DNA of 64,000 nt, from NCBI GenBank assembly GCA_964517795.1, contig CAZFDE010000005.1, positions 3,701-67,700 on the forward strand. Direction: 5' to 3'. Under the pieces are notes generated by a model. It did not search any database. It saw nothing but the letters and a program-made list of their open reading frames with translations, and was not told the DNA's origin. Positions 43,133 through 60,534 of this stretch are shown here, in pieces; position 1 is the first letter of the stretch, and each line of letters opens with the position of its first letter. The DNA is from an uncultured Pirellulales bacterium (lineage in GTDB: Bacteria > Planctomycetota > Phycisphaerae > Sedimentisphaerales > Anaerobacaceae). The translations under genes and the position numbers were made by a program.

Positions 43133-43327
43133 CCGAAAACCTCGAAAACCTTTTCTTATGCTATTGTAATAGACTCAACCGGCATGTGCCAACAAAAATA
43201 GTCCGATACCCCCTATATACCGAACAACGGGCTAATGTTTCTGATGAAGTCCTGATTCAACTTTCGAGGATGTTATGTATTATAAAATACCTAAATAAGC
43301 TGATTATTAATTGTAAAGTTTTGCAAT

Positions 43328-43400
<73 letters not shown>

Positions 43401-43406
43401 AACTCT

Positions 43407-44496: not shown

Positions 44497-47400
44497 TTAG
44501 TCATCAAGTATATCATAACTTTCCTCTTTTTGAAGCCTTTTTTCCAGCCACTTCTCCAAATCTTTTACCCTGTACCTATTATTGCCGCCCACTTTGATGT
44601 ACGGGATTTTTCTTTGGTTGCCCCACATGTAAAGAGTTGACGGAGCTACCCCGAGATACGCAGCAGCTTCTTTTACATTCAATAATTCTTTCTGTTTTTT
44701 AATTTGGCCAGAAACAATGGGCTTTTCAGAAACAATAGAGCCTCCCGTGGTATGGAAAAAGTGCTTTATGCTTTCAGGAGAATAGAAATAGATGCGTTCT
44801 TTTTCTTTTGAGTTAAAGGTTTGCTTTACCAACCTTTTGATTTCAGCTAACAGCTTATCATCTGAGCTTACAGCCAAAATATAGTCGTAACCAGCTTGGA
44901 GGCATTTTTTGATATTTTCTTTTTCGTGTTTGGGCTTTGTGGTACTGGCTATCTCAACGGCTACCTTAATATCATCTTTCTTTAGCTCTACATCAACACT
45001 TTCTAAAGAACGCGGAATTTTCTTTTCAATATCAGCTTTCCAGCCAAATACCTTAGCTTGCTCTGCTATACTTTCTTGAAGCTGTTGATGAACATCCCCA
45101 CCTTTTCCCCTGGTTGTGAGTTTTTGGGCCAGAGCCTGTCCTTTTTCAGTTAAAACAAGTTCTTTTGCCAGCCTTCCTCTTTTGCCTTTTCTGGTTTCCT
45201 GCTGAACTACAAGCCCCTTTTCAATCAGGCTGTTCTTCAATTTATCGCCCTTGTAGCCGCTCAATTTCAAAGCCTTGTATATCTTGGTTACGAACTTTCC
45301 GCTATGAGAGTCAATAAACTTCAAAAATCCTTGCTCTTGGAGCGATAATTCAGATTTTGGCTTAGCCGCTTTTTCTTTTGGAGCGGGCTTTTTTGCTCGA
45401 ATAGTTGGCGTCTCAACAGCAGGAGCCTTTTCTTTTAAAGCTTCCTCTTGCCAATCCAATAACTGCTCAAGCTCTTTTCTGCTCTTTGCGTACTTTTTAC
45501 GAGAAAGCTCGATTATCTTTTCTTTGCGCTCAAGGCCAAGTTGATGTGGCACATTTTCCGGTAAGTAAGTCTCTATATTAAAATCATAATCTGATTTATC
45601 TACCCTGACTATGGCCTCACCAACATCCAGATTCGTCAAATCCTTCGCCTCAAAGTAAGAAAAACCTTCTTCAAGCTTTTTAGCATCGAAATCTCCCAGG
45701 CCGAAACAAATCCTGGTACCCGGATTTGATCTCACAGAACTTGCCAATTCGGGATTTTGACTCCAAAGTTGTTTCAATTCCTGATGGGTCACTATGAGGC
45801 CAAGCCTGTATTTCCGAGCTTCGGATAAGATTTCTGTCATCGATTGGGTAGCGAAATTCTGAAACTCATCGACATAAAGGTAAAAGTCTTTTCGTTTTTC
45901 TTCTGGTTGAGCTTGTCTTGCCATGGCAGCCTGATGGAACTTGGTAACGAGTAACGCTCCTAACAGATACGAAACACCTTTACTAACCATTCCTTGGGAG
46001 AGGTTGGCGAGGAAGATTTTCTTTGTGTCCATTATTTTCTGGAAGTCCAGGCCTTCTTTTTGAATAACCATGTTGCGGATTGACTTTCGACGAAGAAACT
46101 CATTTAAACGTGTCAGAATCGGTGAGCACGCATTCGGACGCAGCATTGGAAACTGCTTTTTCCAATAATATATAACCTGTTGGTCTGTGACTGTTTTCAA
46201 AAAGTCCCTTCGGAAGCTGTTATCAACCAGAAAATGTTGCAAGTCAATTAGTGTGCCGCCTTTTTCGCTTTCCAGAAAAGCTAATATGGCATTGGCGAAA
46301 ACTGAGTTCATCTGGTCGCCCCAGCTTGTCGATAGTCTGCGAAAAACACCGACTAAGTCCGAGGAAAGCAGGGTTTTTTCTTGCTCAGAGTGTGCAGATA
46401 AAACATTCAGCCCCACAGGGTAATTTGAGTCCGCAGCATCAAGCAAAATCACGTCATCGAATCTTTCTTCGGGTACATAGGGCATGATGTGTTCGATAAG
46501 GTCACCGTGCGGATCCAAAACAGCAATCCCATTGCCTTGCTGTATATCCTGGCGAATCATATTCAAAAACAAGGTAGATTTACCCCTGCCCGTAGTGCCG
46601 ATGATATAGGTATGTCGCCGCCTTTGAATCGGGCTTAAGGTAACTTCTATTTCTTTGCCCTGGTGGACGTTTTTACCGAGCACCAACTTGTGGCCAGAAA
46701 CAATAGAAGGTGCTTGTTTGGTTCTCTTTATTTCCCGTTTCAGCTTGGCGGTCTTTACTGAAACAGAAGGCAGATGAACAAGCGAAAGTAACTCTGCTGT
46801 ATTTAACAACATCCCTGTCCTGTGGCTTTGCCTGTAGTATAAATCGTCAAAGTGAAGGTCGTGAGTGTAGGCTTCATCGGTATCTAAAGGGATAAGCTCA
46901 TTACTCGGCGGATTCGAGACCTGCTGCAATCCCGCTGCCAGGCCTTTTGTAATCTCCCAGGCCCGGGCTTCAGATTGACTGGAACCTGCTACCCTGATAA
47001 CCGCAGCCAACAATGGCTTATTTATCTTTTCTTGAGCTAGTTTTATCATTTCAGGACTATCGGTAAAAAAGTTACCGCCTTCACAGTCTGTTAATGATTT
47101 CAAGATGTTTTCATGCCAGGGATTCCTAACCGGTTCAAATAGAATCTGGAACATTGCCATTTCACCTTCAGCTAAATTTTCCATTGAACCTACAATGCCG
47201 GTCAAGGGATCAGGTTCAAAACCACGAAATGCCTTCAAAGGCCTCATAAACTCTTGAGATAAACCAAAGTCAACTATCACAGAAGGATTGTTTCTATCTA
47301 ACCTGCACTTTGGCTGTTGATTCTCGTACAAGGCGGCGTCAGGAAAATATGCTTTTAGCTGCTGGATAACTGTTGAAAAATCAGGTTCTCGGCAAATGAC

Positions 47401-47859
47401 CTGGAATGAAATCTCCTCGAAACAGCCCACAATTTCAAAGCTGACCGGAAATTTGCAGTATCTAAGGTTTAGCAGAAATTGTTCAGTGTAGTCGAAATCT
47501 ATTTTTTGACCTTCGGGTACAGAGACAGTGACACTGGTCAAAGGCGCACTTTCTGTAAGAAATTCCGGTCCTTGGCTGAAGAAATAATCTTTTGACTTCT
47601 CTTGTTCTTCGGAGCTTGCGAACTTATTTTTAACTTTTTCTGCAAAGCTGGTTAAAAGGGATGGTTTTCTGCCGTCATCTACGATTGGTTCTCTTGTGAA
47701 AACACTCGAAATGAAAGGGATGAAGGGCGGCTCTAATCGGACAGGGAAATCCCAGAGCAGCCAGCCCCTGCCTCTTTGCTCCCATTTGTAAAAATCCTCT
47801 GTAAGCTGCTCTGAAAGAGTTTTTTGGTTTTCATTCTGTTCTAAAGGCTCGTTTGCCAT
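44497..47859 (-). CDS. TraD/VirD4-like (FtsK/HerA-superfamily) P-loop ATPase fused to wHTH, a possible PD-(D/E)XK-like module and a C-terminal excisionase-type HTH
   Basis: Walker A motif IIGTTGRGKSTLF. Walker B and coupling-protein-type motifs FYLYVDEFQNFAT and ARKYRLGLIVTHQ. wHTH-like segment KGLVVQQETRKGKRGRLAKELVLTEKG. Possible nuclease core VDVELKKDDIKVAVEIASTTK. Terminal HTH LLNVKEAAAYLGVAPSTLYMWGNQRKIPYIKVG. Confidence 0.65.
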   Translation of the reverse strand: MANEPLEQNENQKTLSEQLTEDFYKWEQRGRGWLLWDFPVRLEPPFIPFISSVFTREPIVDDGRKPSLLTSFAEKVKNKFASSEEQEKSKDYFFSQGPEFLTESAPLTSVTVSVPEGQKIDFDYTEQFLLNLRYCKFPVSFEIVGCFEEISFQVICREPDFSTVIQQLKAYFPDAALYENQQPKCRLDRNNPSVIVDFGLSQEFMRPLKAFRGFEPDPLTGIVGSMENLAEGEMAMFQILFEPVRNPWHENILKSLTDCEGGNFFTDSPEMIKLAQEKINKPLLAAVIRVAGSSQSEARAWEITKGLAAGLQQVSNPPSNELIPLDTDEAYTHDLHFDDLYYRQSHRTGMLLNTAELLSLVHLPSVSVKTAKLKREIKRTKQAPSIVSGHKLVLGKNVHQGKEIEVTLSPIQRRRHTYIIGTTGRGKSTLFLNMIRQDIQQGNGIAVLDPHGDLIEHIMPYVPEERFDDVILLDAADSNYPVGLNVLSAHSEQEKTLLSSDLVGVFRRLSTSWGDQMNSVFANAILAFLESEKGGTLIDLQHFLVDNSFRRDFLKTVTDQQVIYYWKKQFPMLRPNACSPILTRLNEFLRRKSIRNMVIQKEGLDFQKIMDTKKIFLANLSQGMVSKGVSYLLGALLVTKFHQAAMARQAQPEEKRKDFYLYVDEFQNFATQSMTEILSEARKYRLGLIVTHQELKQLWSQNPELASSVRSNPGTRICFGLGDFDAKKLEEGFSYFEAKDLTNLDVGEAIVRVDKSDYDFNIETYLPENVPHQLGLERKEKIIELSRKKYAKSRKELEQLLDWQEEALKEKAPAVETPTIRAKKPAPKEKAAKPKSELSLQEQGFLKFIDSHSGKFVTKIYKALKLSGYKGDKLKNSLIEKGLVVQQETRKGKRGRLAKELVLTEKGQALAQKLTTRGKGGDVHQQLQESIAEQAKVFGWKADIEKKIPRSLESVDVELKKDDIKVAVEIASTTKPKHEKENIKKCLQAGYDYILAVSSDDKLLAEIKRLVKQTFNSKEKERIYFYSPESIKHFFHTTGGSIVSEKPIVSGQIKKQKELLNVKEAAAYLGVAPSTLYMWGNQRKIPYIKVGGNNRYRVKDLEKWLEKRLQKEESYDILDD

Positions 47860-48551: not shown

Positions 48552-48579
48552 TTGACTATGCCCAGATTTTGATTATGAT
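48552..48579 (+). promoter_or_regulatory. Putative sigma70-type promoter for the seven-gene operon
   Basis: TTGACT (48552-48557), a 16-nt spacer, then TATGAT (48574-48579), about 50 nt upstream of the ATG at 48631. Found by eye only. Confidence 0.25.
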
Positions 48580-48630: not shown

Positions 48631-48807
48631 ATGCCTGAAGACAGATGGTATTCAGTCGAAGAAATCGCAGAGTATTTGGGCGTGAAAAGGGACACTCTCT
48701 ACAAATGGATCATTCGCAAGAAAATGCCTGCCCACAAGGTCGGGCGATTGTGGAAGTTTCGTAAAAAAGAAGTCGATAAATGGGTTAAGACGGGTAAATC
48801 AGCTTAA
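48631..48807 (+). CDS. Excisionase/MerR-type helix-turn-helix protein (58 aa; below the ORF-track cutoff)
   Basis: Translation: MPEDRWYSVEEIAEYLGVKRDTLYKWIIRKKMPAHKVGRLWKFRKKEVDKWVKTGKSA. A GGGAG RBS lies 8 nt upstream, and the stop is 1 nt before the next start. Confidence 0.8.
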   Translation: MPEDRWYSVEEIAEYLGVKRDTLYKWIIRKKMPAHKVGRLWKFRKKEVDKWVKTGKSA

Positions 48808-48808
48808 A

Positions 48809-51800
48809 ATGTCGGACTTTCTCGAACAATCTGTTGATATTCTCAAGCTTGGCACTAAGGAATTGCATGCGTTGAGGCTTTTAAAAGTTGAAAGTATTAA
48901 AGATTTTATAAAGCTTAAGCTCAATAGCGACCTTATGCCGAGAGGGTATGGGTATTTTACGTATAAATCGCTTCAGAAAACTCAAAAGAAATTACTTAAA
49001 AAGCAACATATTTTAGTTCAGAAAACGAATCGTGATAAAACTCAAATATTTTCAGAGATATTAAATAGAGTCAACGTTAGAACACAACATTGCCTTCGTA
49101 GATTAGGCGTAATTACACTCCAAGGTTTTCTTGAATTAACGGATGAGGATGTTTTGGGTTGCAAAGGGGCAGGACAGAAAGTTTTATCTGAAATAAAAAT
49201 GATCCAAAATGATTATATACATCTGAGATCATTTGATAGTAATAGTTTTCTGAGTACTCCCGCTAATCATGAAATATTTAAGAATTTGCCTTTGTTTTCT
49301 AGTAAACCATTACCAATTACCGATGTAGAGTTGAATTCGTCATATTTCCCATATTTAAAGGTCGAACAGATACAATTACCTGATTGGACAAGTCAATATT
49401 TAAAACAAATGAATATAAAAACTTTTGGTGAATTGTTATTGACCCCAGGAGAAGAATTTTTGCAACTTTCCGGATTCGGAACAAATAAACTGCATGAACT
49501 TAAGCAAGCTGCATATCTTTTTCTTAGCTGTAACATAGAACAAAAGGGCGCCAAAGATAAAAAAGAAATATTCAAAGACGTAATCCAAACAATGAGCGTT
49601 AGGACACAAAATATTTTGAAAAGATTAGAGGTAAATACAACTAAAGAGTTGCTTTTCCTTACAGATCAAGAAATTATACATTGTAAAGGAGCGGGATACA
49701 AGGTTTTATCTGAAATAAAACTGTTTCAAAAAAAATATCGGCATCTTAAATCTATCCCTCTAGTGGATTGTTTACGTAGCCCTGCAAACAAAGAAAACAT
49801 AAAGTTTTTACCTTTATTTTCTAATGAACCTTTAGCTGAAAATAATATAGATTTGCATCCATCATATCTTCCAATAAAAAAATTATCTGAAATAATGTTT
49901 CCATCAAGAGCTACAAAATTGTTCAAAAATTTGAAGATTAGAACTATTGGGGAGCTTTTACTGACTCCACCACAAACTTTTATTGACCAAGACAATGTGG
50001 GAATAATAACTATAAAGCAAATTAGGGAGAAAATTGAAAATTGTATTTTAAATAATCAAAATCATATTAATATTTTTAATAAAAGCTTTTCCTCAACTGA
50101 CTTATTGAAGAATTTTACGCAAACAGCTCTTACAACGCGAGAAAGAAAAGTAATTCTGCTTAGAGCGGGGGTATTTGACTCAGTCAATACATTAGAACAA
50201 ATTGCAAAACACTTAAGACTAACACGAGAAAGAATCCGTCAAATACAAAGTAAAGCCGAAAAAAAATTAAGACATCCCTCTAATATCAAGTTGCTTAATA
50301 AATTACAAAACAATATTGAACAAATTATTAAATATTCCGGTGGCAGGATATTACTGAGTGAATTGGCAAAGAAATTGGATTATGAATTGAGTTGGGATAA
50401 GCCCAGCAAAATATCAGTAATTGATTTCATCATTAGCCTATTTGGAAATATGAAAACTGACAACGAGATCGTTTATTTAGATGATTTTCCATGTAGATAT
50501 TGCAATGCAGCCAAAGACGCAATTGAAAATAAAATGCGATTGTCCTTTGAGGTTAATATAAAAGACATATCCGATAAAACTAAAGAATTTTGCTCTTCGC
50601 AAGACTGTAAACTTTTTGATCAGGAAAAAACAAATTTTTCCTGCATTTTTATAAAGCATTATATTGCCAATAGGCCAAAGCTACGGAAACTTTATTCGTG
50701 TCATAATAACCTTATCTGCAAGGCAGAGCTTAAATGTCTAAAATATGGGCCAAAACATCTTGCAGTCGAACAAATTCTTAAAGACTCTCGGAAGCCCTTG
50801 CATTTTACCGAAATAACTTCGATATATAAAGATTATCGTCCTGAAGAAAAGGTTTCAGACCAATCGATCTATGGAATATTAGGCAATTTGAATAAAGCTG
50901 TGCTTTGGGATCGGGGAACTTTTATACATTATGATTATATTCTTTTTGACACTGAATTTACTGATGATGTTTCTGATTGGCTATTTTTAAATTTACGTAA
51001 TGGGTTGAGTTTTATTTCTATTTCAGGAGCGTACTCAACATTTAAAAAGAGATGTAAAAAACTTAATATAAAATCAGAGATGGCTTTATATTCATACCTA
51101 AGGTTAGAAAGACCCAAAAAACTTTTTTTGAATAAATACCCATTCATTACAAGAACAAACCGTAAAATATCTGTTCAAGATTTTTTGGTAGATTATGTGA
51201 AAGCACGAGACGGGGAAATACCTTTGAACGAGCTAAAAGAGCACTTGAAAACGTATGGCTTTAAAAATCATTTAGGAAATATGTTAAGAAATGTTCCGAG
51301 TCTATTAATAGCAGACAATAATAAAATAATACATGTTGATAATTTAAATATAACGTCGCCCAGATTTTATAAAATATGCAAGTATGCTCAAAGCCTGTTG
51401 CTTAACTCAAATATTATTAGTGTCCAAAAAGTATATAAAGACAAAATGATAAGCTGCAAACTACTTGGTATAAATGGCCCTCGTTTGTTGTTTTCTTGTT
51501 TCCAAAACTTTGGCCAACAATTCATAATTACAGGGCGTTATCCGCAATTAAAGAGTTTAGATAAAAAACATCTTAAAGGATTAGGTATTAGGACAGAATT
51601 TGAAGACTACCTTAAAAAACACGGCACCTGTAGCAAAGAAGGATTGATTGAACATTTTGTTGAAAAAATGGGCTACAGTGAAGGCTCAATTGAGGCTGCC
51701 GTTTATTACTTAGATGACATTTTACTTTACACTCCTAATTGTTACATAAATAGGACTAATTTGGGTTGGAGTCAGAAACAGTACAATAAATTATTACAAA

Positions 51801-52216
51801 TATTGAGAGAAGCATATTTTGAGAGTTCTAAAAAAGGAAAATATTATGCTCGACTCAAAGATATTTATGATTATTGGTATGTTAAATTGCCAGAAATCCA
51901 AAGTGATATTCCTTGGACATTCACATTGCTGCGGAGTTTAACTGAAAGTATTGAAGATTTTAGATTTCTCGGAAATGCTAAAGATGCTTATATCGCTCTA
52001 AACTCTAATAATCAAATTAAAACCCTACAAGATTTGATTCATATGTTACTGTACCAAGAATATGATGGTGCCGCGAAAAAAGATGATTTAGAAAAACAAT
52101 TGGTCAGTGAAGGTATTCTGAGGAAGCATTTGACACCAAACATGTTAAATGACTCAGACAAAATAGTTATTAACGGAAATAATGTAATTGCAAAAGAGCT
52201 AGTCCAAAATGTTTAA
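48809..52216 (+). CDS. 1135-aa multi-DNA-binding-module protein: RpoA-alphaCTD-like HhH modules (4-5), sigma-70 region-4 HTH, Cys-rich segment, HARE-HTH-like module, long uncharacterised C-terminus
   Basis: alphaCTD-like units: VNVRTQHCLRRLGVITLQGFLELTDEDVLGCKGAGQKVLSEIK, MSVRTQNILKRLEVNTTKELLFLTDQEIIHCKGAGYKVLSEIK, LPDWTSQYLKQMNIKTFGELLLTPGEEFLQLSGFGTNKLHELK and FPSRATKLFKNLKIRTIGELLLTPPQTFIDQDNVGIITIKQIREKIE. Sigma region 4: LTTRERKVILLRAGVFDSVNTLEQIAKHLRLTRERIRQIQSKAEKKL. HARE-HTH-like: LAVEQILKDSRKPLHFTEITSIYKDY...SIYGILGN..AVLWDRGTFIH. Confidence 0.7.
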   Translation: MSDFLEQSVDILKLGTKELHALRLLKVESIKDFIKLKLNSDLMPRGYGYFTYKSLQKTQKKLLKKQHILVQKTNRDKTQIFSEILNRVNVRTQHCLRRLGVITLQGFLELTDEDVLGCKGAGQKVLSEIKMIQNDYIHLRSFDSNSFLSTPANHEIFKNLPLFSSKPLPITDVELNSSYFPYLKVEQIQLPDWTSQYLKQMNIKTFGELLLTPGEEFLQLSGFGTNKLHELKQAAYLFLSCNIEQKGAKDKKEIFKDVIQTMSVRTQNILKRLEVNTTKELLFLTDQEIIHCKGAGYKVLSEIKLFQKKYRHLKSIPLVDCLRSPANKENIKFLPLFSNEPLAENNIDLHPSYLPIKKLSEIMFPSRATKLFKNLKIRTIGELLLTPPQTFIDQDNVGIITIKQIREKIENCILNNQNHINIFNKSFSSTDLLKNFTQTALTTRERKVILLRAGVFDSVNTLEQIAKHLRLTRERIRQIQSKAEKKLRHPSNIKLLNKLQNNIEQIIKYSGGRILLSELAKKLDYELSWDKPSKISVIDFIISLFGNMKTDNEIVYLDDFPCRYCNAAKDAIENKMRLSFEVNIKDISDKTKEFCSSQDCKLFDQEKTNFSCIFIKHYIANRPKLRKLYSCHNNLICKAELKCLKYGPKHLAVEQILKDSRKPLHFTEITSIYKDYRPEEKVSDQSIYGILGNLNKAVLWDRGTFIHYDYILFDTEFTDDVSDWLFLNLRNGLSFISISGAYSTFKKRCKKLNIKSEMALYSYLRLERPKKLFLNKYPFITRTNRKISVQDFLVDYVKARDGEIPLNELKEHLKTYGFKNHLGNMLRNVPSLLIADNNKIIHVDNLNITSPRFYKICKYAQSLLLNSNIISVQKVYKDKMISCKLLGINGPRLLFSCFQNFGQQFIITGRYPQLKSLDKKHLKGLGIRTEFEDYLKKHGTCSKEGLIEHFVEKMGYSEGSIEAAVYYLDDILLYTPNCYINRTNLGWSQKQYNKLLQILREAYFESSKKGKYYARLKDIYDYWYVKLPEIQSDIPWTFTLLRSLTESIEDFRFLGNAKDAYIALNSNNQIKTLQDLIHMLLYQEYDGAAKKDDLEKQLVSEGILRKHLTPNMLNDSDKIVINGNNVIAKELVQNV
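49046..50038 (+). repeat. Internal tandem duplication (about 155-aa unit, two copies) inside the 1135-aa gene
   Basis: Unit 1 is aa 80-233 and unit 2 is aa 254-410; they align collinearly (IFSEILNRVNVRTQ.. / IFKDVIQTMSVRTQ.., PANHEIFKNLPLFSSKPL / PANKENIKFLPLFSNEPL). Short stretches are near-identical at the nucleotide level, for example GTTTTATCTGAAATAAAA in both copies. Confidence 0.8.
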
Positions 52217-54320
52217 AAAGCTTAATTTACAACCTATTTACGATAGTTCGGAGCTAAGCATTATTAACGAACTTATAATTCCGCTTTTATCAAATTCCGT
52301 AGCATATCACAGAGGTGTCGGTTTTTTTACTTCTGGTTGGCTTCGATTGGCATCAAAAGGGTTGGCTAAATTAATAGAAAATGGTGGAACAGCAAAAATA
52401 GTAGTTTCACCATTATTATGTGAAGGGGATTGGAAAGCTTTGGTTTTGGGTGAAGAAGCTAAACACAATAAAGTACTAAAAGAAAAACTACATCTTAGTC
52501 TAGATGAGATAAGTAAAAATCTTGAAGCAAATACTCTCAGCACATTAGCATGGATGGTTGCGGATGAATTGGTTGAATTTAAATTTGCCATTGCAAAACA
52601 GGAGTTTGCTGGGGGTGATTACCATGATAAAGTTGGATTATTTCAAGACAACAATGGTGATGAAATAGCAATACATGGATCTTTCAATGATACACTGAAG
52701 GGCACATTAAATGGAGAAGCCTTTTCTGTATTTAAGTCTTGGGAAACAGGGCAAAATCCTTATGTAGTTAAACACAAACAACGTTTAATTAAGCTTTGGA
52801 ATAACAATAATGGTCAATTTATTGTTTATACCATTCCGGAAGCTATAAAAAAACAATTCATTCAGTACCGTACCCAAGAGCGGCCCTACATTCTTAAAAA
52901 TAAAAGTACTGCTGCTGTAGCTAAAATAGCTGATAATGCGATTAATCTCCGCTATTATCAAAAAAAAGCTATTCAAGAGTGGCTGTCTAATGAGCGTAAA
53001 GGTATTTTTGAGATGGCTACGGGAACAGGAAAAACATTTACTGCATTAGCAACAGCACAAAAAGCCTTTGAAATTGACAACATTCAAGCCTTGGTAGTCT
53101 TAGTTCCATACATACATCTTTTAGAACAATGGGCAGAGGAAACGGAAAAATTTGGATATGTGCCTGTATTATGTAGCGGTCAGCACAAACATTGGCCCAA
53201 AAAGGCTAGATCTAAAATTGAAGATTATAATCTTGGTAGCCTAAAAAAGATATGCCTTATTTCAGTTCACCATACAGCTTCCACTAATCGCTTTTTAAAA
53301 ACAGTTGGCAAACTTAAAAACCATTCAATGGTCGTTGCGGATGAAGTACATCGCTTAGGTTCCGGAGAATTAAAAAAAGCCCTTTATGAAAAGTACCAAT
53401 ATCGTTTGGGACTCTCAGCAACTCCTGAACGATGGTATGATGAAATTGGGACACAAGCGCTATTTAATTACTTTGAAGGTATATGTTACAGGTATGGCTT
53501 AAGCGAAGCCATAGAAAATAAATACCTCACACCTTATGATTATAATCCCATACTTGTTGAGTTAACGTCTGATGAATTAGACAAATATGAACAGCTTACC
53601 AATAAAATAATCTCACTGGCACCACAAGCCAAGGCTGATATTGAAGTTTCAGAAACGTTAAAAATTCTTTTGCTAAAAAGAACTGAATTAATTGCAAAAG
53701 CTGCACATAAATTACCAGTACTTATAAAATTGCTTAAAGGCATTATTTCAGAAACATATAGGGAACAGCAAGAAGCCTCACACATTTTAATTTATTGTGC
53801 TCCTGGCAAACATAGAGAAATCTTAAAGGCTGTTTCCGATATAGGCTTACGATGCCATGAGTTTGTGCACACCGTATCATTAAAAGATCGAAGAAAGGTA
53901 TTAACAGATTTTAAATCTGGTCATATACAAGTCTTGGTTGCCGTTAAGTGTCTGGACGAAGGTGTTGATGTGCCTGCAACACAATCAGCTTTTATTCTTG
54001 CCAGTAGCACTAACCCAATGGAATATGTTCAACGCCGAGGTAGGATATTAAGGCCATCTGAAGGAAAAAATAAAGCAAATATTTATGATTTCATTGTTAC
54101 ACCGTCTGCCAATAATATTATTGGAGATAAGTTTGCAGGGGTACTTAAACGTGAAATGCCCCGGTTTGTAGAATTTTCTTCTTTAGCAAAAAATAAATTT
54201 CAAGCAAGAAAAGTAGTGCGTGAAATGTTAGATAAGAATGGGCTATTAGATTTATTAGACAAATTTCCTTGGGATATTTACAGGGAAGCAAAAAAGGACA
54301 TGTTAAATGATTACGAATAA
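52209..54320 (+). CDS. PLD-family (single HKD) nuclease domain fused to an SF2 DEAD/DEAH (ResIII-type) helicase
   Basis: HKD motif: DYHDKVGLFQDNNGDEIAIHGSFNDT. Helicase motifs: I MATGTGKTF, II VVADEVHRLG, III LGLSATPER, VI QRRGRILR. It overlaps the upstream gene by 8 nt. Confidence 0.85.
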   Translation: MFKKLNLQPIYDSSELSIINELIIPLLSNSVAYHRGVGFFTSGWLRLASKGLAKLIENGGTAKIVVSPLLCEGDWKALVLGEEAKHNKVLKEKLHLSLDEISKNLEANTLSTLAWMVADELVEFKFAIAKQEFAGGDYHDKVGLFQDNNGDEIAIHGSFNDTLKGTLNGEAFSVFKSWETGQNPYVVKHKQRLIKLWNNNNGQFIVYTIPEAIKKQFIQYRTQERPYILKNKSTAAVAKIADNAINLRYYQKKAIQEWLSNERKGIFEMATGTGKTFTALATAQKAFEIDNIQALVVLVPYIHLLEQWAEETEKFGYVPVLCSGQHKHWPKKARSKIEDYNLGSLKKICLISVHHTASTNRFLKTVGKLKNHSMVVADEVHRLGSGELKKALYEKYQYRLGLSATPERWYDEIGTQALFNYFEGICYRYGLSEAIENKYLTPYDYNPILVELTSDELDKYEQLTNKIISLAPQAKADIEVSETLKILLLKRTELIAKAAHKLPVLIKLLKGIISETYREQQEASHILIYCAPGKHREILKAVSDIGLRCHEFVHTVSLKDRRKVLTDFKSGHIQVLVAVKCLDEGVDVPATQSAFILASSTNPMEYVQRRGRILRPSEGKNKANIYDFIVTPSANNIIGDKFAGVLKREMPRFVEFSSLAKNKFQARKVVREMLDKNGLLDLLDKFPWDIYREAKKDMLNDYE

Positions 54321-54339
54321 TATGAATAAGAGGTGATAC

Positions 54340-54510
54340 ATGGCAGAAATAAATGACTTGATAATTAAAAAACTCAAAGCTTATCCCAGGGATGTTCAGA
54401 AGATAGCAATAAAAGCTATTGAGTTATCTGAAAATCAACCAGAAATCACAGTTCGCGATAGGATTGAAGCTGAAATAAGAAGTATTGTCAAAATGGATGG
54501 ACAAAAATGA
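54340..54510 (+). CDS. 56-aa hypothetical protein (below the ORF-track cutoff)
   Basis: Translation: MAEINDLIIKKLKAYPRDVQKIAIKAIELSENQPEITVRDRIEAEIRSIVKMDGQK. AAGAGG RBS. Its stop overlaps the next start (ATGA). Confidence 0.6.
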   Translation: MAEINDLIIKKLKAYPRDVQKIAIKAIELSENQPEITVRDRIEAEIRSIVKMDGQK

Positions 54511-56552
54511 TACTTAAAGAAATAAAGTTTAAAAATTTTAGGCAGTTCAAGGATGAACAGAACATCAAATTTGCTTATAGTTCCGGTAAAAAAAATGTGA
54601 CGGTAATATTTGGGCAAAATGGGCGAGGTAAAACGGCTGTTTTTAGGGCTATCATGTTTTGCTTGTACGGAGACAGAAAACTTTCCCAAGACGGCGAAAC
54701 AGCTGAAAAAGAGATACATCTTGTTAATACAGCAGCCTTGGAAAATTCTAAAGGCAGCAACGAACCGGTAGAAACTTATGTACAGCTAGATTTCGAACAC
54801 AGAGGAATTAAATATTCGATCAAACGCACTCTTTTAGGAATAATTGAAGGAAATAGGGTCATCGAAGAGCTTGGAGAAATAACCCTTTATCAAACTGATG
54901 AAAAAGGAAATACTCGGCCAATACGTGATCCTAAAGACATAAATGAGGTTGTTAACAAAATACTCGACCAAAGAGTTCGTGAATACTTTTTATTTGATGG
55001 GGAAAAAATTGAGCGACTTACAAGGGCAAGTCAGGACCAGAAAAGAGAAATTTCTAAGGGCATTCGAAATCTTCTAAATATTGATTCTCTGCAAAAATCA
55101 ATAGGTGCTATAAAAAAAGTTCGAAAAAAGCTTGATACTGAGTTGGCAAATAATTCTTCAGGAGAATTGGCCAGAGTAATAAAAAAAATAAACGATAATA
55201 TTGACAAAAGAGATAAGCTCGAAAAAGAACTTGAAGAGTTAGGGCAAGAATATGATTTGGCGCGTTCCGAAAAAATCGATGTTGACAAAAAACTTGACGA
55301 ATATGGTGAGATTGCTGATTTAATAAGACAACGTAAAGAATTGGAGCGTGAGGAGAAGGAAAGGGAAAGTTCTTTGCATGAAAACAGCATAAACATGCGT
55401 ACTCGCATAGGCAAGGGATCATTTCTGTTAGTCAGTAATTTAGTTGACCGCGTTTACGAAGAAATCGAACAATGCAAAAAAAGGGGTGAAATACCATCAG
55501 AAATAAGGCGAGAACTTATAGAAAAAATATTAATAGAACAAAAATGTATTTGTGGCAGAAATATAAAACCTGACTCTGATGCTTTCCATAAAATTATAGA
55601 ATGGAAGAATAAAACCGCAGACATTACTCTTCAAGATATAATACTTGAGGTATGGAGACATCTAAGCACAATTCGCAGTAGAAAAGAAGATACTGGAGAA
55701 TCAATTGAAGCTGCACTTCAAAAATATGGTGTGGATAAAAATGAACTGGAAGAAGCAAGACGTAAAATACAAAACATCAGTGAAAAAATTGGCAGCGATG
55801 TTCGCCAGGATGCAGTTGGGTTAGAACAACATAGGAAGAATATAGAAGACAGTTTAGTAAAAATAGAAGCTAAACGCCAATTAATAGATTCTGAAATTAT
55901 CGCACTAAAAGAGGAATATCAGAGCTTAACCAAACAGCGTAAAGAATTCGAGAAGAAAGAAGGTTTGATCGGGGAATTGAATAGCCGAGCGGATTTGGCT
56001 TCACGATGTTACGATGCTCTTTTCGAAATATATAAAGAATTTACTGATGATGTTAAAATTAGCCTTGGCAAGGAAGCAACTCAAGTTTTAGAAAAACTAT
56101 TATCCGAACATGGTCATAAGAATTTGCGAGAAGTAAAAATAGCCAATGATTATTCTCTCCAAGTTGTGGATAAATGGGGCAAGCCTTTCCTGGCCAATAT
56201 TTCTGCTGGTGAACGGCAGATCATGTCAATATCCTTTATAACGGCTCTTGCTAAAGCTGCTTCAGGCGGTAATACTTTAGAAATGCCTTTATTTATGGAC
56301 ACCCCTTTTGGCCGCTTATCTTCTGACCACCGCCAAAATCTTATTGAAGTTATTCCAAATGAAACAACGCAATGGATACTTCTTGCTACAGATACAGAAT
56401 TTAGAAAACAAGAGGCTATACTTTTGAAGGATGGTGGAAGATGGGGTAGATTTTATACTTTAGAAACAAACAATGATGGAAGTACAAGAATCCAAGAACG
56501 TAAAATTCAGGAATCAATGCAATTATTAATTGATGAAATAGAGGATTATTGA
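54507..56552 (+). CDS. DndD-like SMC/ABC-type ATPase
   Basis: N-terminus: LKEIKFKNFRQFKDEQNIKF....VTVIFGQNGRGKTAVFRAIMFCLYGD. A long coiled-coil middle region. C-terminal SAGERQIMSISFITALAKA and the DndD-type signature LFMDTPFGRLSSDHRQNLIEVIP...QWILLATDTEF. Confidence 0.85.
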   Translation: MILKEIKFKNFRQFKDEQNIKFAYSSGKKNVTVIFGQNGRGKTAVFRAIMFCLYGDRKLSQDGETAEKEIHLVNTAALENSKGSNEPVETYVQLDFEHRGIKYSIKRTLLGIIEGNRVIEELGEITLYQTDEKGNTRPIRDPKDINEVVNKILDQRVREYFLFDGEKIERLTRASQDQKREISKGIRNLLNIDSLQKSIGAIKKVRKKLDTELANNSSGELARVIKKINDNIDKRDKLEKELEELGQEYDLARSEKIDVDKKLDEYGEIADLIRQRKELEREEKERESSLHENSINMRTRIGKGSFLLVSNLVDRVYEEIEQCKKRGEIPSEIRRELIEKILIEQKCICGRNIKPDSDAFHKIIEWKNKTADITLQDIILEVWRHLSTIRSRKEDTGESIEAALQKYGVDKNELEEARRKIQNISEKIGSDVRQDAVGLEQHRKNIEDSLVKIEAKRQLIDSEIIALKEEYQSLTKQRKEFEKKEGLIGELNSRADLASRCYDALFEIYKEFTDDVKISLGKEATQVLEKLLSEHGHKNLREVKIANDYSLQVVDKWGKPFLANISAGERQIMSISFITALAKAASGGNTLEMPLFMDTPFGRLSSDHRQNLIEVIPNETTQWILLATDTEFRKQEAILLKDGGRWGRFYTLETNNDGSTRIQERKIQESMQLLIDEIEDY

Positions 56553-56553
56553 T

Positions 56554-56991
56554 ATGAGCATGTCAACAGACTTGAGAGTAAAGGTAAATAAAGAATACTC
56601 GGATTTATATACGGATTGGAGAAACCTCTGTTCTGATATGCACGAGTTATTTTTCTTGTGTGTTTGTTTGGGTTACAATGCTCAAAAAAATACTCCTTTG
56701 GGAAGAAAAGGTGAACCGAAATTTTGGTCGGGTACAATAACTCCTGAAGAATGGAGTTGCTTTTATGCAATGCTTCTCAAAAAAAACCAAATGGATCCTA
56801 AGTCTGTTATGGATGACAAAATAGTTATGTCTGAAATGGAAGGCTTTGCTAATGCCGGAATGGAAATATTAATTGACGAACTTTTAACTGATTTTACTAT
56901 TGGAGACAGAAAAAACCTTAGAATTGATAGCAGTAGCTCAAAAGACTTGGCTAAAAGTATTTTGGCTTATATTAATGATTTAGCACAATAA
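56554..56991 (+). CDS. 145-aa hypothetical protein (possibly a small Dnd-associated/DndE-like helper; unverified)
   Basis: It is tightly coupled, with 1-nt gaps on both sides. The segment ELFFLCVCLGYNAQKNTPLGRKGEPKFW reminds me of small Dnd-associated proteins, but I cannot confirm this without an HMM search. Confidence 0.45.
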   Translation: MSMSTDLRVKVNKEYSDLYTDWRNLCSDMHELFFLCVCLGYNAQKNTPLGRKGEPKFWSGTITPEEWSCFYAMLLKKNQMDPKSVMDDKIVMSEMEGFANAGMEILIDELLTDFTIGDRKNLRIDSSSSKDLAKSILAYINDLAQ

Positions 56992-56992
56992 A

Positions 56993-58345
56993 ATGAGAAT
57001 ATTATTAGTTGAACCTGATTATAAAAATAAATACCCACCTTTGGGACTTATGAAACTTTCTGCTTTTCATAAGCGAATAGGAGATTTTGTAAAGTTTGTA
57101 AAAGGATGTGATAGAGAAATTGTCCAGGAAGAATGGGACAGAATTTATATAAGTACATTATTTACGTTCTATTGGAACAAAACTTTGCAAACCGTCAAAT
57201 ATTATGAGCGAAAAACAACTGATCCTAAAAAAATTTTTATCGGTGGCGTTTTAGCTACACTTCTTACTGAAGAGATTAAAAAAGAAACAAATGTCAATAT
57301 TGTTAGAGGCCTTATTACATCACCTCATGATATTGGCTTAAAAGGGTCGTATTGTATAGACCATATAATGCCGGATTACAGCATCTTAAGTGAAATCAAT
57401 TATAAGTATTCTACAGAAAATGCTTATATTGGCTACGCAACTCGTGGTTGCCCTAATAGATGCGATTTTTGCGCAGTAAAAAGCATAGAACCTAATTTTG
57501 AACATTATTTACCACTAAAAAAACAGATCAAGGGCGTAGAGGATATTTATGGTACTCGTAAAGACTTACTACTTCTTGATAATAATGTCCTGGCATCTAA
57601 TAAGTTTAAAACGATCATTGAAGACATAATTAGTTTGGGTTTTGGAAAAGGAGCCACGTTAAACGGCAAAAAACGATACGTTGATTTCAATCAAGGTATA
57701 GATGCTAGGAAATTTAGTAAAAAAAATGCTAAGCTACTGTCAAAAATAGCACTAAAACCTTTAAGATTAGCATTTGACAGCATCAAATATCGAAATATTT
57801 ATGAAAAGAGCGTTAGATTAGCAAGTGAATGGGGGATTTCTCATCTGTCAAATTATATTCTTTATAACTATACTGATACACCCGAAGATTTTTACCAAAG
57901 GCTTAAAATTAATATTCGACTAAACAGACAGCTTGGAACCAAAATATACTCATTTCCTATGAAATATATTCCTCTTGATTCAAAAAACAGGAGGTATATT
58001 GGCGAAAACTGGAATAGACAATATATTCGTGGGGTTCAATGCATTCTTTTAGCAACACATGGTATGGTGGGGCCTAATAATGAGTTTTTTAAAGCAGCGT
58101 TTGGTAGTTCTCAAGAAGAGTTTAAGAAAATAATTTCAATGCCAGAAAAATATATAATATACAGAGAAGCACATAAGAATAATGGAGCTCTGGATTGGAA
58201 GTTGCTTTACAATCGTTTATCACCTGGACAAAAAAGAACTTTTCATTCAAAACTCTTCTCAAAAAGAATTGATAAATTAGATGTGATTCGAGAAAGTAGC
58301 ATTAGACTTAAAAATATATACAGTCATTACACAGCCATCCCATAA
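56993..58345 (+). CDS. Radical SAM enzyme with an N-terminal B12-binding-like domain; last 4 codons and the stop are supplied by an IS end
   Basis: N-terminus MRILLVEPDYKNKYPPLGLMKLSAFHK, typical of B12-domain radical SAM proteins. CxxxCxxC cluster motif ATRGCPNRCDFCAV. Codons TAIP plus the stop (58331-58345) lie within the IS inverted repeat. Confidence 0.85.
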   Translation: MRILLVEPDYKNKYPPLGLMKLSAFHKRIGDFVKFVKGCDREIVQEEWDRIYISTLFTFYWNKTLQTVKYYERKTTDPKKIFIGGVLATLLTEEIKKETNVNIVRGLITSPHDIGLKGSYCIDHIMPDYSILSEINYKYSTENAYIGYATRGCPNRCDFCAVKSIEPNFEHYLPLKKQIKGVEDIYGTRKDLLLLDNNVLASNKFKTIIEDIISLGFGKGATLNGKKRYVDFNQGIDARKFSKKNAKLLSKIALKPLRLAFDSIKYRNIYEKSVRLASEWGISHLSNYILYNYTDTPEDFYQRLKINIRLNRQLGTKIYSFPMKYIPLDSKNRRYIGENWNRQYIRGVQCILLATHGMVGPNNEFFKAAFGSSQEEFKKIISMPEKYIIYREAHKNNGALDWKLLYNRLSPGQKRTFHSKLFSKRIDKLDVIRESSIRLKNIYSHYTAIP

Positions 58346-59685
58346 GTTTGTAGATTTTGCATCGTGACCTCATTTACCGTAGCAATAAGGCCATTTTTGT
58401 GGTGCGTTTCTATAACCCCAGTTTGCAATTTTTATTGGCTATTATCAATTCGGCAAGATGATCCTTGATCTGAGATTCATTAATTTTGATAACATTATTA
58501 AAGTTCTTGTGCTGTTGTGACGATTCATTGTTATGCATCGTTCTGTCCTTTCTTTGTTTTAATGGTTAATAATTATTTTTATACCATCGACCAAAGAAAG
58601 GACTCTTTTAATTTCAATTTCAAATGTGCGAAAAATATTATACGTTCCCGCTTGAAAAACACCTCGACACCCCAGCGACATTTATACAAATCACAAATAC
58701 TGCTCGGTGCCCATATCATATTGTTTGTGATAAATGTCATTGTTTTTTTCACGCCATTAATTTCCACTTCAGCTGTAATTAAACGTAATCTCTGCGGGTA
58801 AGCCTTGCGGCTTTTCAGTGTTTTAAGTTCGATTAATACATCGCTAAGAATATCACCCTTTGGTTTTGTATGCCGTTTAACAATACGATACTGCATATTG
58901 TCTTTAGCACGAGTAACCCAGAAAACGCATCGTCTGTCAAGGTCAGCCAGATGCGTGAAATCCACGTAGGCCTTATCAAACACCGATATTTCGCCACTTT
59001 TAAGATTCAGGCAGAGGCGATAGGCTTCGGTGGAATCATGCGTAGAAGCCTCTTTGACGATAGCGAATTGCGGCAGAAATGTCTGGAGGTTAAGCTGCAT
59101 ATGACACTTTGCCGCCGCTTTACGCCTGCGATGTTTGGCCCAGTCAATACAATTTGCAACAAGCTGAATAGTGGTTGAGTCAATTGCATAGATTGTTCGC
59201 TTGAACCGTCTTGGCAGACCGGAATACTTATGGTTACGCCCGAAGTCGGGGTGTTTGTTTTCGATATGGGACAGCACATCCCAGAAGAGTGTTTGTGCCA
59301 TATTGGGGTCTCGAACACGGTTTGCATGCGACAGGCCATTCCTGCTGGGCGGTGTTGCACCGCGAATAGTTGTCAAAACTCCCGAATGATTACGCAATGT
59401 GTCTGCCACGTCGTTGAGCGATAGGCTGTGTGCAATCTGGACGTGCAACATAGCAACAACATGCGACCAAGGCGAAAAAGATCGTGCTTTCTTGTCTATT
59501 CCGAAAGACCGGGCAAGTTTTGGAACAAGATGAGCTGGAATATGCTGGCATATTTGATTGAGAATGGTATAGTTATGTTTAGCTGGCTTCATGAGTTACT
59601 CCTATTTTTTTCACGATTATAGTGTAACTCAGAAGCCGCTATTTTAGAAGAAATCTCATAGTTAATTTCCTATGGGATGGCTGTG
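58330..59685 (-). mobile_element. IS4-family-like insertion sequence (1356 bp) with terminal inverted repeats and a 9-bp target-site duplication
   Basis: IRL at 58330-58346 is CACAGCCATCCCATAAG. The reverse complement of IRR (59669-59685) is CACAGCCATCCCATAGG, a 16/17 match. Direct repeats CAGTCATTA at 58321-58329 and 59686-59694 flank the IRs. The element is visibly GC-richer than the surrounding island. Confidence 0.85.
58579..59592 (-). CDS. IS4-family DDE transposase (DUF4372-type N-terminus); C-terminus possibly degenerate
   Basis: N-terminus: ILNQICQHIPAHLVPKLARSFGIDKKARSFSPWSHVVAMLHVQIAHSLSLNDV. DDE region with YAIDSTTI and VFDKAYVDF. C-terminal YKCRWGVEVFFK is followed by a short atypical tail and about 250 bp of non-coding sequence. 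Confidence 0.75.
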   Translation of the reverse strand: MKPAKHNYTILNQICQHIPAHLVPKLARSFGIDKKARSFSPWSHVVAMLHVQIAHSLSLNDVADTLRNHSGVLTTIRGATPPSRNGLSHANRVRDPNMAQTLFWDVLSHIENKHPDFGRNHKYSGLPRRFKRTIYAIDSTTIQLVANCIDWAKHRRRKAAAKCHMQLNLQTFLPQFAIVKEASTHDSTEAYRLCLNLKSGEISVFDKAYVDFTHLADLDRRCVFWVTRAKDNMQYRIVKRHTKPKGDILSDVLIELKTLKSRKAYPQRLRLITAEVEINGVKKTMTFITNNMIWAPSSICDLYKCRWGVEVFFKRERIIFFAHLKLKLKESFLWSMV

Positions 59686-59946
59686 CAGTCATTACATAGG
59701 TAATTAAGGGTAAGCAAATGCCAGTTGAAGATGAAAACATGCATGAAACCTTTTTACTAAAAGAATATGACAATATTGCAAAGGCACACTTTACTACGGT
59801 CGGAGCAAGGCTATTAGCAAATCTTTACTGCTGCCGGTTAAATTTGCAAACATTTTTAATGTTGACTTCATTAGCTATATGCCTAAATAAATATCTTGTG
59901 TTGTTGATTTAGGGCTTTATAATATTCGGTGAAAGGATTAGTAAGA

Positions 59947-60534
59947 ATGAAAAAGGTTTTTCGTGATTTTATAGGCATTTTTTTAGGAATTATTGTAGGT
60001 ATAGCAATTTATCACTTCTACATAAACTTCCAGACTTCCTCACATAAATCTTTTCTAAATACAACAGCCAATAATCCTCAGGCAACTGATAAGGATTTTG
60101 CTAAATTAACCAATGATGTAACACCAAAAGCAAGTAACGAAACAAACATTTCTTCTGCTGAATTTTATTTATGTGAAATAAGCGATTTTTATGAAAGTCT
60201 TATTACGGTGTTATATTCAACAATAGGTATTTTGCTTGTAGTAAGTTTTATCTACGTTTATACAAGGTCCAGAAGTCATGCAGAAGAAATGGCACGTGAA
60301 GCACTTAAGGAAGAGGCATTTTTGATTGCTCTTAAAGACAAGATTCAAAGATCATTTACTGCATTGAAAAATGAAGGAGAAATAGCTGATTTAATTGAAA
60401 AAACGTCAGATTTAAATGAGAGAATAGAGTTTTTAGAAAAAGCTATAACAAAGCAAAGCTATGAAATAAACTCAACCACAAATTCTCAAGACGCACAAGG
60501 AGAAAAAAATAGTGGCGATAATAAGAAGGCATAG
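59947..60534 (+). CDS. Membrane protein with two TM helices and a C-terminal coiled coil
   Basis: The ATG at 59947 gives MKKVFRDFIGIFLGIIVGIAIYHF. The second TM helix is LITVLYSTIGILLVVSFIYVY, followed by a heptad-like EEMAREALKEE...ERIEFLEKAI segment. Confidence 0.5.
   Translation: MKKVFRDFIGIFLGIIVGIAIYHFYINFQTSSHKSFLNTTANNPQATDKDFAKLTNDVTPKASNETNISSAEFYLCEISDFYESLITVLYSTIGILLVVSFIYVYTRSRSHAEEMAREALKEEAFLIALKDKIQRSFTALKNEGEIADLIEKTSDLNERIEFLEKAITKQSYEINSTTNSQDAQGEKNSGDNKKA

Follow-up and report, generated by a model that had tools for sequence, protein, structure and literature searches.

PbeABCD systems were originally defined as dependent on phosphorothioate modification (PMC6459918), and the Aravind laboratory equates them with the CxC ABC-ATPase/DndE systems (PMC10853773; ABC, ATP-binding cassette). 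In the definitions of the latter work, PbeA joins an HKD nuclease to a superfamily 2 (SF2) helicase in one fusion, the small protein PbeB evolves rapidly, an ABC ATPase bearing a CxC hook serves as PbeC, and PbeD is the cognate of DndE. Most described Pbe systems, not all, neighbour dnd phosphorothioation genes or cytosine methylases (PMC10853773, PMC6459918); more than half of PbeAC pairs have no dnd genes nearby, and Xiong et al. count 165 of 553 pairs, about 30 %, as 'solitary', with no modification gene in the vicinity (PMC6459918). The only Pbe system that has been tested is that of Haloterrigena, in which restriction requires every one of pbeB, pbeC and pbeD, the loss of pbeA leaves residual defence, and a separate dndCDEA set modifies the DNA (PMC6459918). 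Here we compare these systems with an operon of seven genes, A to G, at 48631-58345 of a 64-kb stretch of contig CAZFDE010000005.1 (hereafter the window; all coordinates refer to the whole window, position 1 being its first letter, and "L" numbers denote compared loci). The locus is a horizontally acquired defence cassette of the PbeABCD type. Its Pbe core is already known; the new element is a widespread but unstudied radical S-adenosylmethionine (SAM) gene, G, standing in place of the usual dnd or methylase genes. Our model is that of a Pbe restriction cassette for which G is the self-marking DNA-modification module, and we give it a probability of about 0.5.

A PbeABCD core between genes B and G

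The seven open reading frames (ORFs) all run in one direction as a single, tightly coupled unit within an AT-rich island that has tRNA and integrase genes, and their coordinates and junctions are as the original prediction had described them. On the + strand, gene A (48631-48807) encodes a 58-aa HTH_17 protein (HTH, helix-turn-helix) of the excisionase/MerR type that is MAD1-like, and lies 1 nt from gene B (48809-52216), which encodes a giant of 1135 aa with alpha-CTD-like (CTD, C-terminal domain), sigma-70 region 4 and winged-helix parts. B overlaps by 8 nt with gene C (52209-54320), which encodes an HKD (phospholipase D-type) nuclease fused to an SF2 helicase. A gap of 19 nt leads to gene D (54340-54510; 56 aa), situated between PbeA and PbeC, and this shares a 4-nt ATGA overlap with gene E (54507-56552), encoding a DndD-like ABC ATPase of the CxC (Zn-hook) clade. 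Gaps of a single nucleotide then separate E from gene F (56554-56991), for a DndE-like 'DNA phosphorothioation-associated protein 4', and F from gene G (56993-58345, native only to 58329/58330), for a radical SAM protein with an N-terminal B12-binding-like Rossmann domain.

That C-D-E-F corresponds to PbeA-PbeB-PbeC-PbeD, and so to a CxC ABC-ATPase/DndE system, is close to certain. The product of C matches the PADLOC PbeA model at an E-value of 8.6e-227 and TIGR04095 dnd_restrict_1 ('DNA phosphorothioation system restriction enzyme') at 7.8e-144, where its 480 bits do not reach the cut-off of 600. Pfam finds ResIII and Helicase_C in this protein, helicase motifs I, II, III and VI are present (GTGKT, DEVH, SATP and QRRGR), and the nuclease motif H139-x-K ... 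GS-x-N is kept in 16/16 relatives. E matches the PADLOC PbeC model (E 7.5e-177) as well as TIGR03185 DndD, the latter at 188.6 bits, under the equivalog cut-off of 245.85, so its description as DndD-like in the original prediction is upheld; it has a Walker A motif (GQNGRGKT), a signature motif (SAGERQ) and a Walker B motif (LFMDTPFG), and its CxC hook, C347-I-C349, is kept in 18/18 relatives. No family match was obtained for D in Pfam, PADLOC or NCBIfam. Homologues of D were found by tblastn in L001, L002, L007, L009 and L050 (35-45 % identity), ORFs of 53-62 aa occupy the slot between PbeA and PbeC elsewhere, and D fits the 'rapidly evolving small protein' PbeB of PMC10853773. F likewise has no direct match in Pfam or NCBIfam; its orthologues bear the precomputed PF27807 DNA_S_mod_dnd_assoc_4, and its family profile aligns with an annotated Ruegeria 'DNA phosphorothioation-associated protein 4' (hhalign probability 97.8 %, E 9.5e-13). 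On profile evidence, F is PbeD, the cognate DndE-like protein (with a putative double ribbon-helix-helix, RHH, fold) encoded directly 3' of the ATPase gene. A search of F against solved structures by sequence gave spurious matches to botulinum NTNH and none to DndE; the link to PbeD is the one made by hhalign.

The original prediction had found no named system, Pbe included, to which the gene set belonged, and had held that an assignment by standard tools would count against it. This part of it falls: with PbeA and PbeC recognised by PADLOC, PbeD by hhalign, and D in the PbeB slot, four of the seven genes are assigned to a named system. The absence of DndA, DndB, DndC and methyltransferase genes, which it had also claimed, agrees with our searches of the operon, in which none was detected. 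More broadly, no dnd or methylase gene was found in the operon with Pfam, PADLOC or NCBIfam, and none among the island neighbours or the commonest Pfam families listed for the other ORFs of the window.

We see the order B-PbeA-small ORF-PbeC-PbeD-G repeated in 12 fetched loci and again in loci reached via single proteins, and the same cassette is found both in loci anchored on B and in the closest relatives of G. About eight further loci hold a partial or B-less version. As the same order recurs in unrelated lineages (Chromatiaceae, Bacteroides, Myxococcota, Planctomycetota, Actinomycetota, Cryosericum and Kuenenia), it is not due to chance, and we regard conservation of the gene set as very well founded. 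The conserved unit is B-PbeABCD-G(-H), where H is a gene 3' of G in the closest relatives; it is not one of seven fixed genes, because A is optional. The product of A matches Pfam HTH_17 (E 2.9e-18), PADLOC mad1 (E 9.1e-13) and NCBIfam antiphage_MADS1 (77.3 bits, cut-off 80). Besides the window, L002, L007 and L092 are the only loci with an HTH_17 ORF 5' of B; L050 has an XRE-type HTH gene in its stead, and A is an optional HTH regulator.

Gene B is a frequent partner of this core. Pfam detects RNA_pol_A_CTD in three stretches of the protein (E 4.8e-25) and Sigma70_r4 (E 5e-10), and in the same search neither a kinase nor any other enzyme domain. A match to PglW is confined to positions ~804-984 of PglW (E 7.7e-13 and 5.6e-11, far under the cut-off), another is to the end of MzaA (sigma region 4), and no iSTAND domain was detected. 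The AlphaFold2 (AF2) model of B rests on 7 sequences and has a predicted local distance difference test (pLDDT) score of 68.6 overall, with low confidence in the N-terminal half and values of ~75-89 over most of residues 650-1135. In the C-terminal half, the model has an array of at least five winged helices with a repeated H-H-H-E-E pattern, for which Foldseek returned tandem winged-helix proteins (UFL1, Dcc1 and the SelB C-terminus) together with sigma region 4. The sigma region 4 of B, at residues 439-497 (~50123-50299), is 46-57 % identical to housekeeping RpoD and has an invariant TRERxRQ; the remainder of the protein is fast-evolving. A profile search for further relatives of B returned mostly RpoD region 4.

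On a plasmid of Ruegeria sp. THAF33 (L088), the genes run dndE, cysteine desulfurase, sigma-like 1026-aa protein, PbeA, small ORF, PbeC and PbeD, with G absent. The 1026-aa protein (2596-5676, directly 5' of PbeA) is homologous to B (hhalign probability 98.1 %, E 9e-14, 559 columns), and a weaker counterpart of B lies 5' of PbeA on an L. plantarum (Lactiplantibacillus) plasmid, again with G absent (L089 3053-6478). The plasmid Pbe homologues are distant, with 23-36 % identity in PbeC, and none bears G. Since a homologue of B precedes PbeA in a Dnd-linked Pbe locus, homology indicates that B is not specific to Pbe cassettes with G and belongs to Pbe generally; many 'PbeABCD' cassettes would seem to be five-gene units with a B-like giant. 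B is missing from three divergent Pbe+G loci. A 1343-aa protein encoded 5' of PbeA in L060 was tested as an analogue of B and rejected. B is most likely a DNA reader or scaffold. It could read promoter-like DNA, and on a weaker reading its copies of alpha-CTD and sigma region 4 could be decoys that sense phage factors directed against RNA polymerase.

The radical SAM gene G and its cassettes

The cysteines of the CX3CX2C motif of G (C153, C157 and C160) are invariant in 28/28 sequences, and no other cysteine is. No PADLOC model matches G, and its matches in Pfam and NCBIfam are all far below cut-off, among them PF04055 Radical_SAM (19.6 bits, cut-off 29.5) and B12-binding (E 0.0033). The AF2 model (pLDDT 89) is matched to radical SAM enzymes by Foldseek at a probability of 1.00, with MgmA, MtaB, TsrM, MiaB, AprD4 and RimO at the top, at template modelling (TM) scores of ~0.5. 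The N-terminal domain of these matches is of the B12 or UPF0004 type. Judged from this modelled fold, G falls within the radical SAM superfamily, and both the motif and the fold matches accord with the radical SAM protein with a B12-like N-terminal domain that had been proposed. Because G has no above-cut-off annotation, current pipelines would call at most a bare Pbe system here.

We reject G as a methylthiotransferase of the MiaB/RimO/MtaB kind, as it has neither the three extra invariant N-terminal cysteines for an auxiliary cluster nor a C-terminal TRAM domain, which Pfam did not find; lacking that cluster, G is not expected to insert sulfur as MiaB does. A viperin-like or spore photoproduct lyase (SPL)-like identity was likewise rejected, neither being among the 50 best fold matches. 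The family is large and well delimited: clustering at 90 % identity gives over 7900 groups and at 50 % identity (E <= 1e-30) 307, and a collection of one genome per species has at least 587 matching stretches. Some relatives of G are 620-680 aa long and have their match split into three stretches (P0265-P0279 and others). In the archaeal plasmid record LC711081 a radical SAM protein is annotated with an intein, and the long relatives may hold inteins or other inserts.

A survey of the context of G covered 82 loci, in which G is usually the last conserved gene of several different cassettes, of at least five types. The Pbe type, (B)-PbeA-small ORF-PbeC-PbeD-G, accounts for 20 of them. The arrangement ParB-like/AHJR-like nuclease/SNF2/ParB-like-(DGQHR)-G-(GHKL ATPase) is found in 25 loci, DGQHR(-metallo-beta-lactamase)-G-GHKL in 13, and a DISARM-like cassette, UvrD-like (c13)/c24/DrmA/DrmB/NERD-UvrD-G-GHKL, in five (DrmA E 1.3e-172, DrmB E 7.4e-59). 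Two small types have partners with no family match (c16/c17 in 4 loci and c21 in 3), and the remaining 12 loci have another context or a contig too short to classify. In a neighbour-joining tree, the window G falls in a clade that holds most of the Pbe-linked copies, and the other Pbe-linked copies are scattered among other contexts. As the context types interleave on this tree, the G module has been exchanged repeatedly.

What surrounds G in these cassettes bears on its substrate. In the flanks of the 20 Pbe+G loci, which comprise 66 ORFs, each Pfam family is seen at most three times, and among the 25 commonest families, which are those listed, no DNA methylase, PAPS (phosphoadenosine phosphosulfate) reductase or desulfurase family occurs two or more times. 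No conserved methyltransferase is present in the G-type DrmA/DrmB cassettes. In the DGQHR cassettes, the gene directly 5' of G encodes a DGQHR protein with kinship to DndB and DpdB, which in the Dnd and Dpd systems are found alongside enzymes that modify DNA.

Several of these cassettes merit mention in their own right. Those of the DISARM-like type end in a long G (~686 aa), often followed by the GHKL ATPase gene (L079 108-13545; also L077, L082, L031, L025 and L095). Two cultured bacteria carry the DGQHR/radical SAM/GHKL trio: Novosphingobium aromaticivorans on pNL1 (L086; NC_009426 118850-125348) and Rhizobium leguminosarum on pR132505 (L087), the latter with ParB-like and SNF2-like genes 5' of the trio. 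On DAINAU010000004.1 there are two DGQHR/metallo-beta-lactamase/G cassettes, L023 (8836-30128) and L024 (35238-52917).

Viral contigs hold at least 583 stretches that match G. The closer viral relatives (40-48 % identity) mostly come with the same cassettes and are probably prophage islands. A further ~45 distant homologues, of ~30 % identity and ~300 aa, have no restriction partners (L121-L171, from IMG/VR; e.g. L170 9309-10232). These phage orphans correspond to phrog_9298, which G matches at an E-value of 2.9e-53, and their recurring neighbours encode DNA helicases, a DnaB-like helicase, a DNA methyltransferase and a PAPS reductase. They lack the C-terminal helical 100-150 residues of G, a region that may, we infer, be a docking surface for partners.

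The spread of contexts also bears on the possibility that G acts on protein, modifying a component of the complex (e.g. PbeB or the partner ATPase) post-translationally and so tuning or licensing the nuclease, in the manner of B12 radical SAM enzymes of the RiPP (ribosomally synthesised and post-translationally modified peptide) or MCR (methyl-coenzyme M reductase) type. Such a role would suit both the best fold match, MgmA, which uses B12 and radical SAM chemistry to methylate a glutamine in a protein, and the presence of a fast-evolving 56-aa protein in the same operon. We nonetheless consider it very improbable: G also occurs in the DGQHR-G-GHKL and DrmAB types, where there is neither PbeB nor a conserved small ORF, and the phage orphans lie among replication genes and not beside peptides.

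In our model of a self-marking Pbe cassette, PbeC, a zinc-hook ABC ATPase, and PbeD, a DndE-like DNA binder, would scan DNA, with PbeA, the HKD nuclease-SF2 helicase, as the translocating effector and PbeB as a small, fast-evolving subunit or regulator. B is a frequent fifth partner, most probably for reading DNA or as a scaffold. G would set a covalent mark on host DNA, which the Pbe machinery would read as 'self', and unmarked invading DNA would be attacked; as a portable module, G could be swapped among cassettes. We infer DNA as the substrate of G, and with it the self-versus-non-self logic, because G takes the place of the dnd genes or methylases of other Pbe loci, because the DrmA/DrmB cassettes with G have no conserved methylase, because G is coupled elsewhere to DGQHR proteins related to DndB and DpdB, because phage orphan copies are kept among DNA-metabolism genes, and because one earlier case of a radical SAM enzyme working on DNA is known, that of phage M6 gp53 (PMC8989533). 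The DNA-marking role of G, taken by itself, falls a little short of an even chance. Somewhat more tentative is a wider proposal, that the G family makes an unprecedented radical-chemistry DNA mark by which three or more unrelated restriction machineries recognise 'self' (Pbe, DISARM-like DrmA/DrmB and ParB/SNF2-DGQHR-GHKL), and that the shortened phage orphan, phrog_9298, counterfeits this mark.

Several observations weigh against a DNA mark made by G. It has no recognisable DNA-binding domain, and its binding to and modification of DNA are putative. Its nearest folds act on protein (MgmA), tRNA (MiaB and MtaB), a ribosomal protein (RimO) or small molecules (TsrM and AprD4). The fold likeness spans MgmA and TsrM but also AprD4, which has no B12, and with the Pfam B12-binding match below cut-off, B12 binding by G is putative, as is a place among the class B (cobalamin-dependent) radical SAM methyltransferases. 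The phage orphans, ~30 % identical and shorter at the C-terminus, may differ in function. The membrane protein H, HAD/5'-nucleotidase-like and encoded after G in the closest relatives, hints at nucleotide chemistry. Finally, dnd or methylase genes could lie in the host genome outside the 64-kb window, a gene could be missed among the window ORFs for which the commonest families are listed, and a methylase could be present in a single locus beyond the 25 commonest flank families.

The original prediction had divided the operon differently, with E-F-G as a marking module and B-C as a restriction module. This division is doubtful, since pbeB, pbeC and pbeD are needed for restriction in Haloterrigena, with a separate dndCDEA set for modification (PMC6459918). 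In terms of Pbe, it would make PbeC, PbeD and G a Dnd-like marking machine in which G replaces DndC/DndA, leaving only B and PbeA to restrict. The likeness has a basis, in that DndD and DndE are modification proteins of which PbeC and PbeD are paralogues, G lies directly 3' of PbeD at a distance of 1 nt, and the DGQHR protein and GHKL ATPase that flank G elsewhere parallel DndB and DndD. It is set against the Haloterrigena results, the presence of PbeC and PbeD alongside PbeA in cassettes that have no G, and the occurrence of B in Dnd-linked Pbe as well, and we judge this arrangement improbable.

If the wider proposal on the G family is true, some of the 'solitary' Pbe systems would be accounted for, and the mark would be the first radical SAM-based epigenetic mark of restriction-modification. 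The conserved G is a concrete, testable candidate for the missing marker of Pbe systems that have no modification genes nearby, and its study could reveal a new DNA modification. As the family spans Pbe, DISARM-like and ParB/SNF2 cassettes as well as phage orphans, one biochemical result would bear on several defence systems. Neither the radical SAM partner nor the B-like sigma/alpha-CTD giant is mentioned in the text, as distinct from the figures, of PMC6459918 and PMC10853773. We found no paper that links a G-type radical SAM protein to Pbe, DISARM or DGQHR cassettes, in a literature coverage that did not extend to Krishnan et al. 2020, the original CxC description, which may mention it.

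Island setting and the 3' end of the operon

The operon has a GC content of 0.31-0.36, compared to 0.45-0.55 upstream. The left end of the island is marked by a tRNA-Arg(TCT) gene (43327-43401, - strand) and a tyrosine integrase gene (43407-44465, - strand); Rfam matches only this tRNA and no cobalamin riboswitch. Between these and the operon, a gene for a TrwB/TraG-type coupling protein of 1120 aa with a C-terminal HTH_17 adjoins the cassette (44497-47859, - strand), and in L083-L085 the coupling protein (L083 5848-9416) is accompanied by a relaxase. The cassette appears to move on integrative or conjugative elements. A candidate promoter with 10/12 matches, TTGACT and TATGAT with a 16-nt spacer, lies ~50 nt 5' of A (48552-48579, + strand), and promoter-like sites in the operon region show no excess over shuffled sequence. 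GGGAG precedes A, and the Shine-Dalgarno sequence of D is strong (AAGAGGTGA). At ~5200-39400 on the + strand lies a polysaccharide biosynthesis cluster (glycosyltransferases, epimerases/dehydratases, a flippase-like protein and a sugar transferase), an ordinary chromosomal context.

The 3' end of G is not native, as the original prediction had noted. An insertion sequence (IS) element at 58330-59685 lies in codon 446 of the gene, with perfect 15-bp terminal inverted repeats (CACAGCCATCCCATA / TATGGGATGGCTGTG) and flanked at 58321-58329 and 59686-59694 by the two 9-bp direct repeats of its target duplication, CAGTCATTA. The ORF of the transposase (58579-59592, - strand; DDE_Tnp_1 and DUF4372) encodes 337 aa, compared to 405-408 aa in members of its 90 % cluster, and the protein is probably shortened at the C-terminus. 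The end of the IS supplies the last four codons and the stop codon of G, which presently ends in ...HY-TAIP where the native protein ended in ...SHYIGN. The displaced native 3' end is found at 59695-59707 (+ strand) as C + ATA GGT AAT TAA, giving ...HYIGN and a stop, in agreement with the HY(I/V) C-terminus of the family. We considered and rejected the loss of a domain from G, as only 3-4 non-conserved terminal residues differ. Every invariant residue is retained, including the last ones, H445 and Y446, and the damage to the 3' end of G looks trivial.

The native operon had an eighth gene, H, 3' of G, of which the window keeps a stub of 64 codons (59718-59912, + strand) representing the first part of H. 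An H profile matches the window only at 59727-59801 (profile positions 13-37, E 4.6e-7), and tblastn of H at the stub gives E-values of 3e-4 to 7e-2. In relatives, H is ~460 aa long with four transmembrane helices and an HAD/NT5C (5'-nucleotidase)-like domain bearing a DIDGVL motif; the full-length protein matches Pfam NT5C at E 5.5e-4, below cut-off. H lies 3' of G in the closest relatives, L090 (7514-8890) and L092 (10739-12130), as well as in L007, L041, L049, L050, L052 and L081, and it is present in 2/20 Pbe+G loci of the genome set.

This gene invites another explanation, that G acts on a free nucleotide or small molecule, H processes the product, and the Pbe proteins are the sensor or effector. 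Its position after G in the two closest relatives and six further loci, across two cassette types, is consistent with this, as are the NT5C match and the DIDGVL motif. AprD4, a near fold, is a small-molecule diol dehydratase without B12, and prokaryotic viperins are radical SAM enzymes that serve defence via nucleotide chemistry. However, H is absent from most Pbe+G loci and truncated in the window, the constant neighbours of G bind or translocate DNA, we see no viperin or nucleotide-kinase partner, and viperin is not among the 50 best folds. Chemistry on a free nucleotide or small molecule is, we judge, an improbable role for G.

Decay of the 3' end of the operon has begun in this genome, and the whole system might here be a decaying remnant, with no cognate modification, that no longer protects. 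An IS with an intact target duplication in the last codons of G, the reduction of H to a stub and an IS transposase that itself seems shortened all point this way. On the other side, none of the seven tightly coupled ORFs is broken, every invariant residue of G is kept, PbeA and PbeC have undamaged catalytic motifs, and most of the functional-looking loci also have no H. We consider a dead system unlikely. On the downstream side of the IS, a co-directional trio at 59929-62175 is possibly more island cargo; it encodes a 201-aa protein whose only matches, to membrane-protein families, are weak and do not reach the cut-off, along with an ImmA/IrrE M78 peptidase (60512-61051) and a 'Beta_protein' (61048-62175).

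Comparison with known systems

The closest system is PbeABCD as described by Xiong et al., with the same four core proteins in the same order, strong PADLOC scores and a location on mobile islands. The window operon differs from it in having no dndCDEA, cytosine methylase or MTaX1 gene nearby, and in ending with a radical SAM gene whose product has a B12-binding-like domain, followed by H in the closest relatives. The likeness to Dnd (DndABCDE-DndFGH) comprises a paralogous ABC ATPase (DndD/PbeC), an RHH protein (DndE/PbeD), an Fe-S enzyme and the logic of restriction-modification. In contrast to Dnd, DndA, DndB, DndC and DndFGH were not detected in the operon, E is under the DndD equivalog cut-off, and its Fe-S enzyme is one of the radical SAM superfamily and not of the PP-loop DndC family. 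As for the MADS system, A is under the antiphage_MADS1 cut-off and no other mad model matches B-G.

DISARM (DrmA/DrmB with the DrmMI/MII methylases) and Dpd (DpdA/DpdB with the DpdD-K helicases) likewise join helicase/nuclease restriction to an exchangeable marking module. This likeness concerns the other homes of the G family, with DrmA/DrmB or with DGQHR proteins like DpdB and DndB, and not the window operon, which has no DrmA, DrmB, DpdA or DGQHR gene. B resembles the C-terminal half of PglW from type 2 BREX, in which an alpha-CTD-like module is followed by winged-helix HTH modules and then a sensory end (PMC12839542). Both proteins have alpha-CTD-like modules and then HTH/winged-helix modules, whereas B lacks the PglW kinase.

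For G itself, the nearest functional counterpart is phage M6 gp53, the only radical SAM enzyme so far reported to install a DNA modification (PMC8989533). Like the role proposed for G, that of gp53 is one of a radical SAM enzyme acting on DNA, in its case after replication and in a context of restriction evasion. Compared by description, gp53 is SPL-like and phage-encoded, has no B12-like domain, and reshapes a hypermodified base that already exists, whereas G has a B12-binding-like domain and is the terminal gene of a Pbe cassette.

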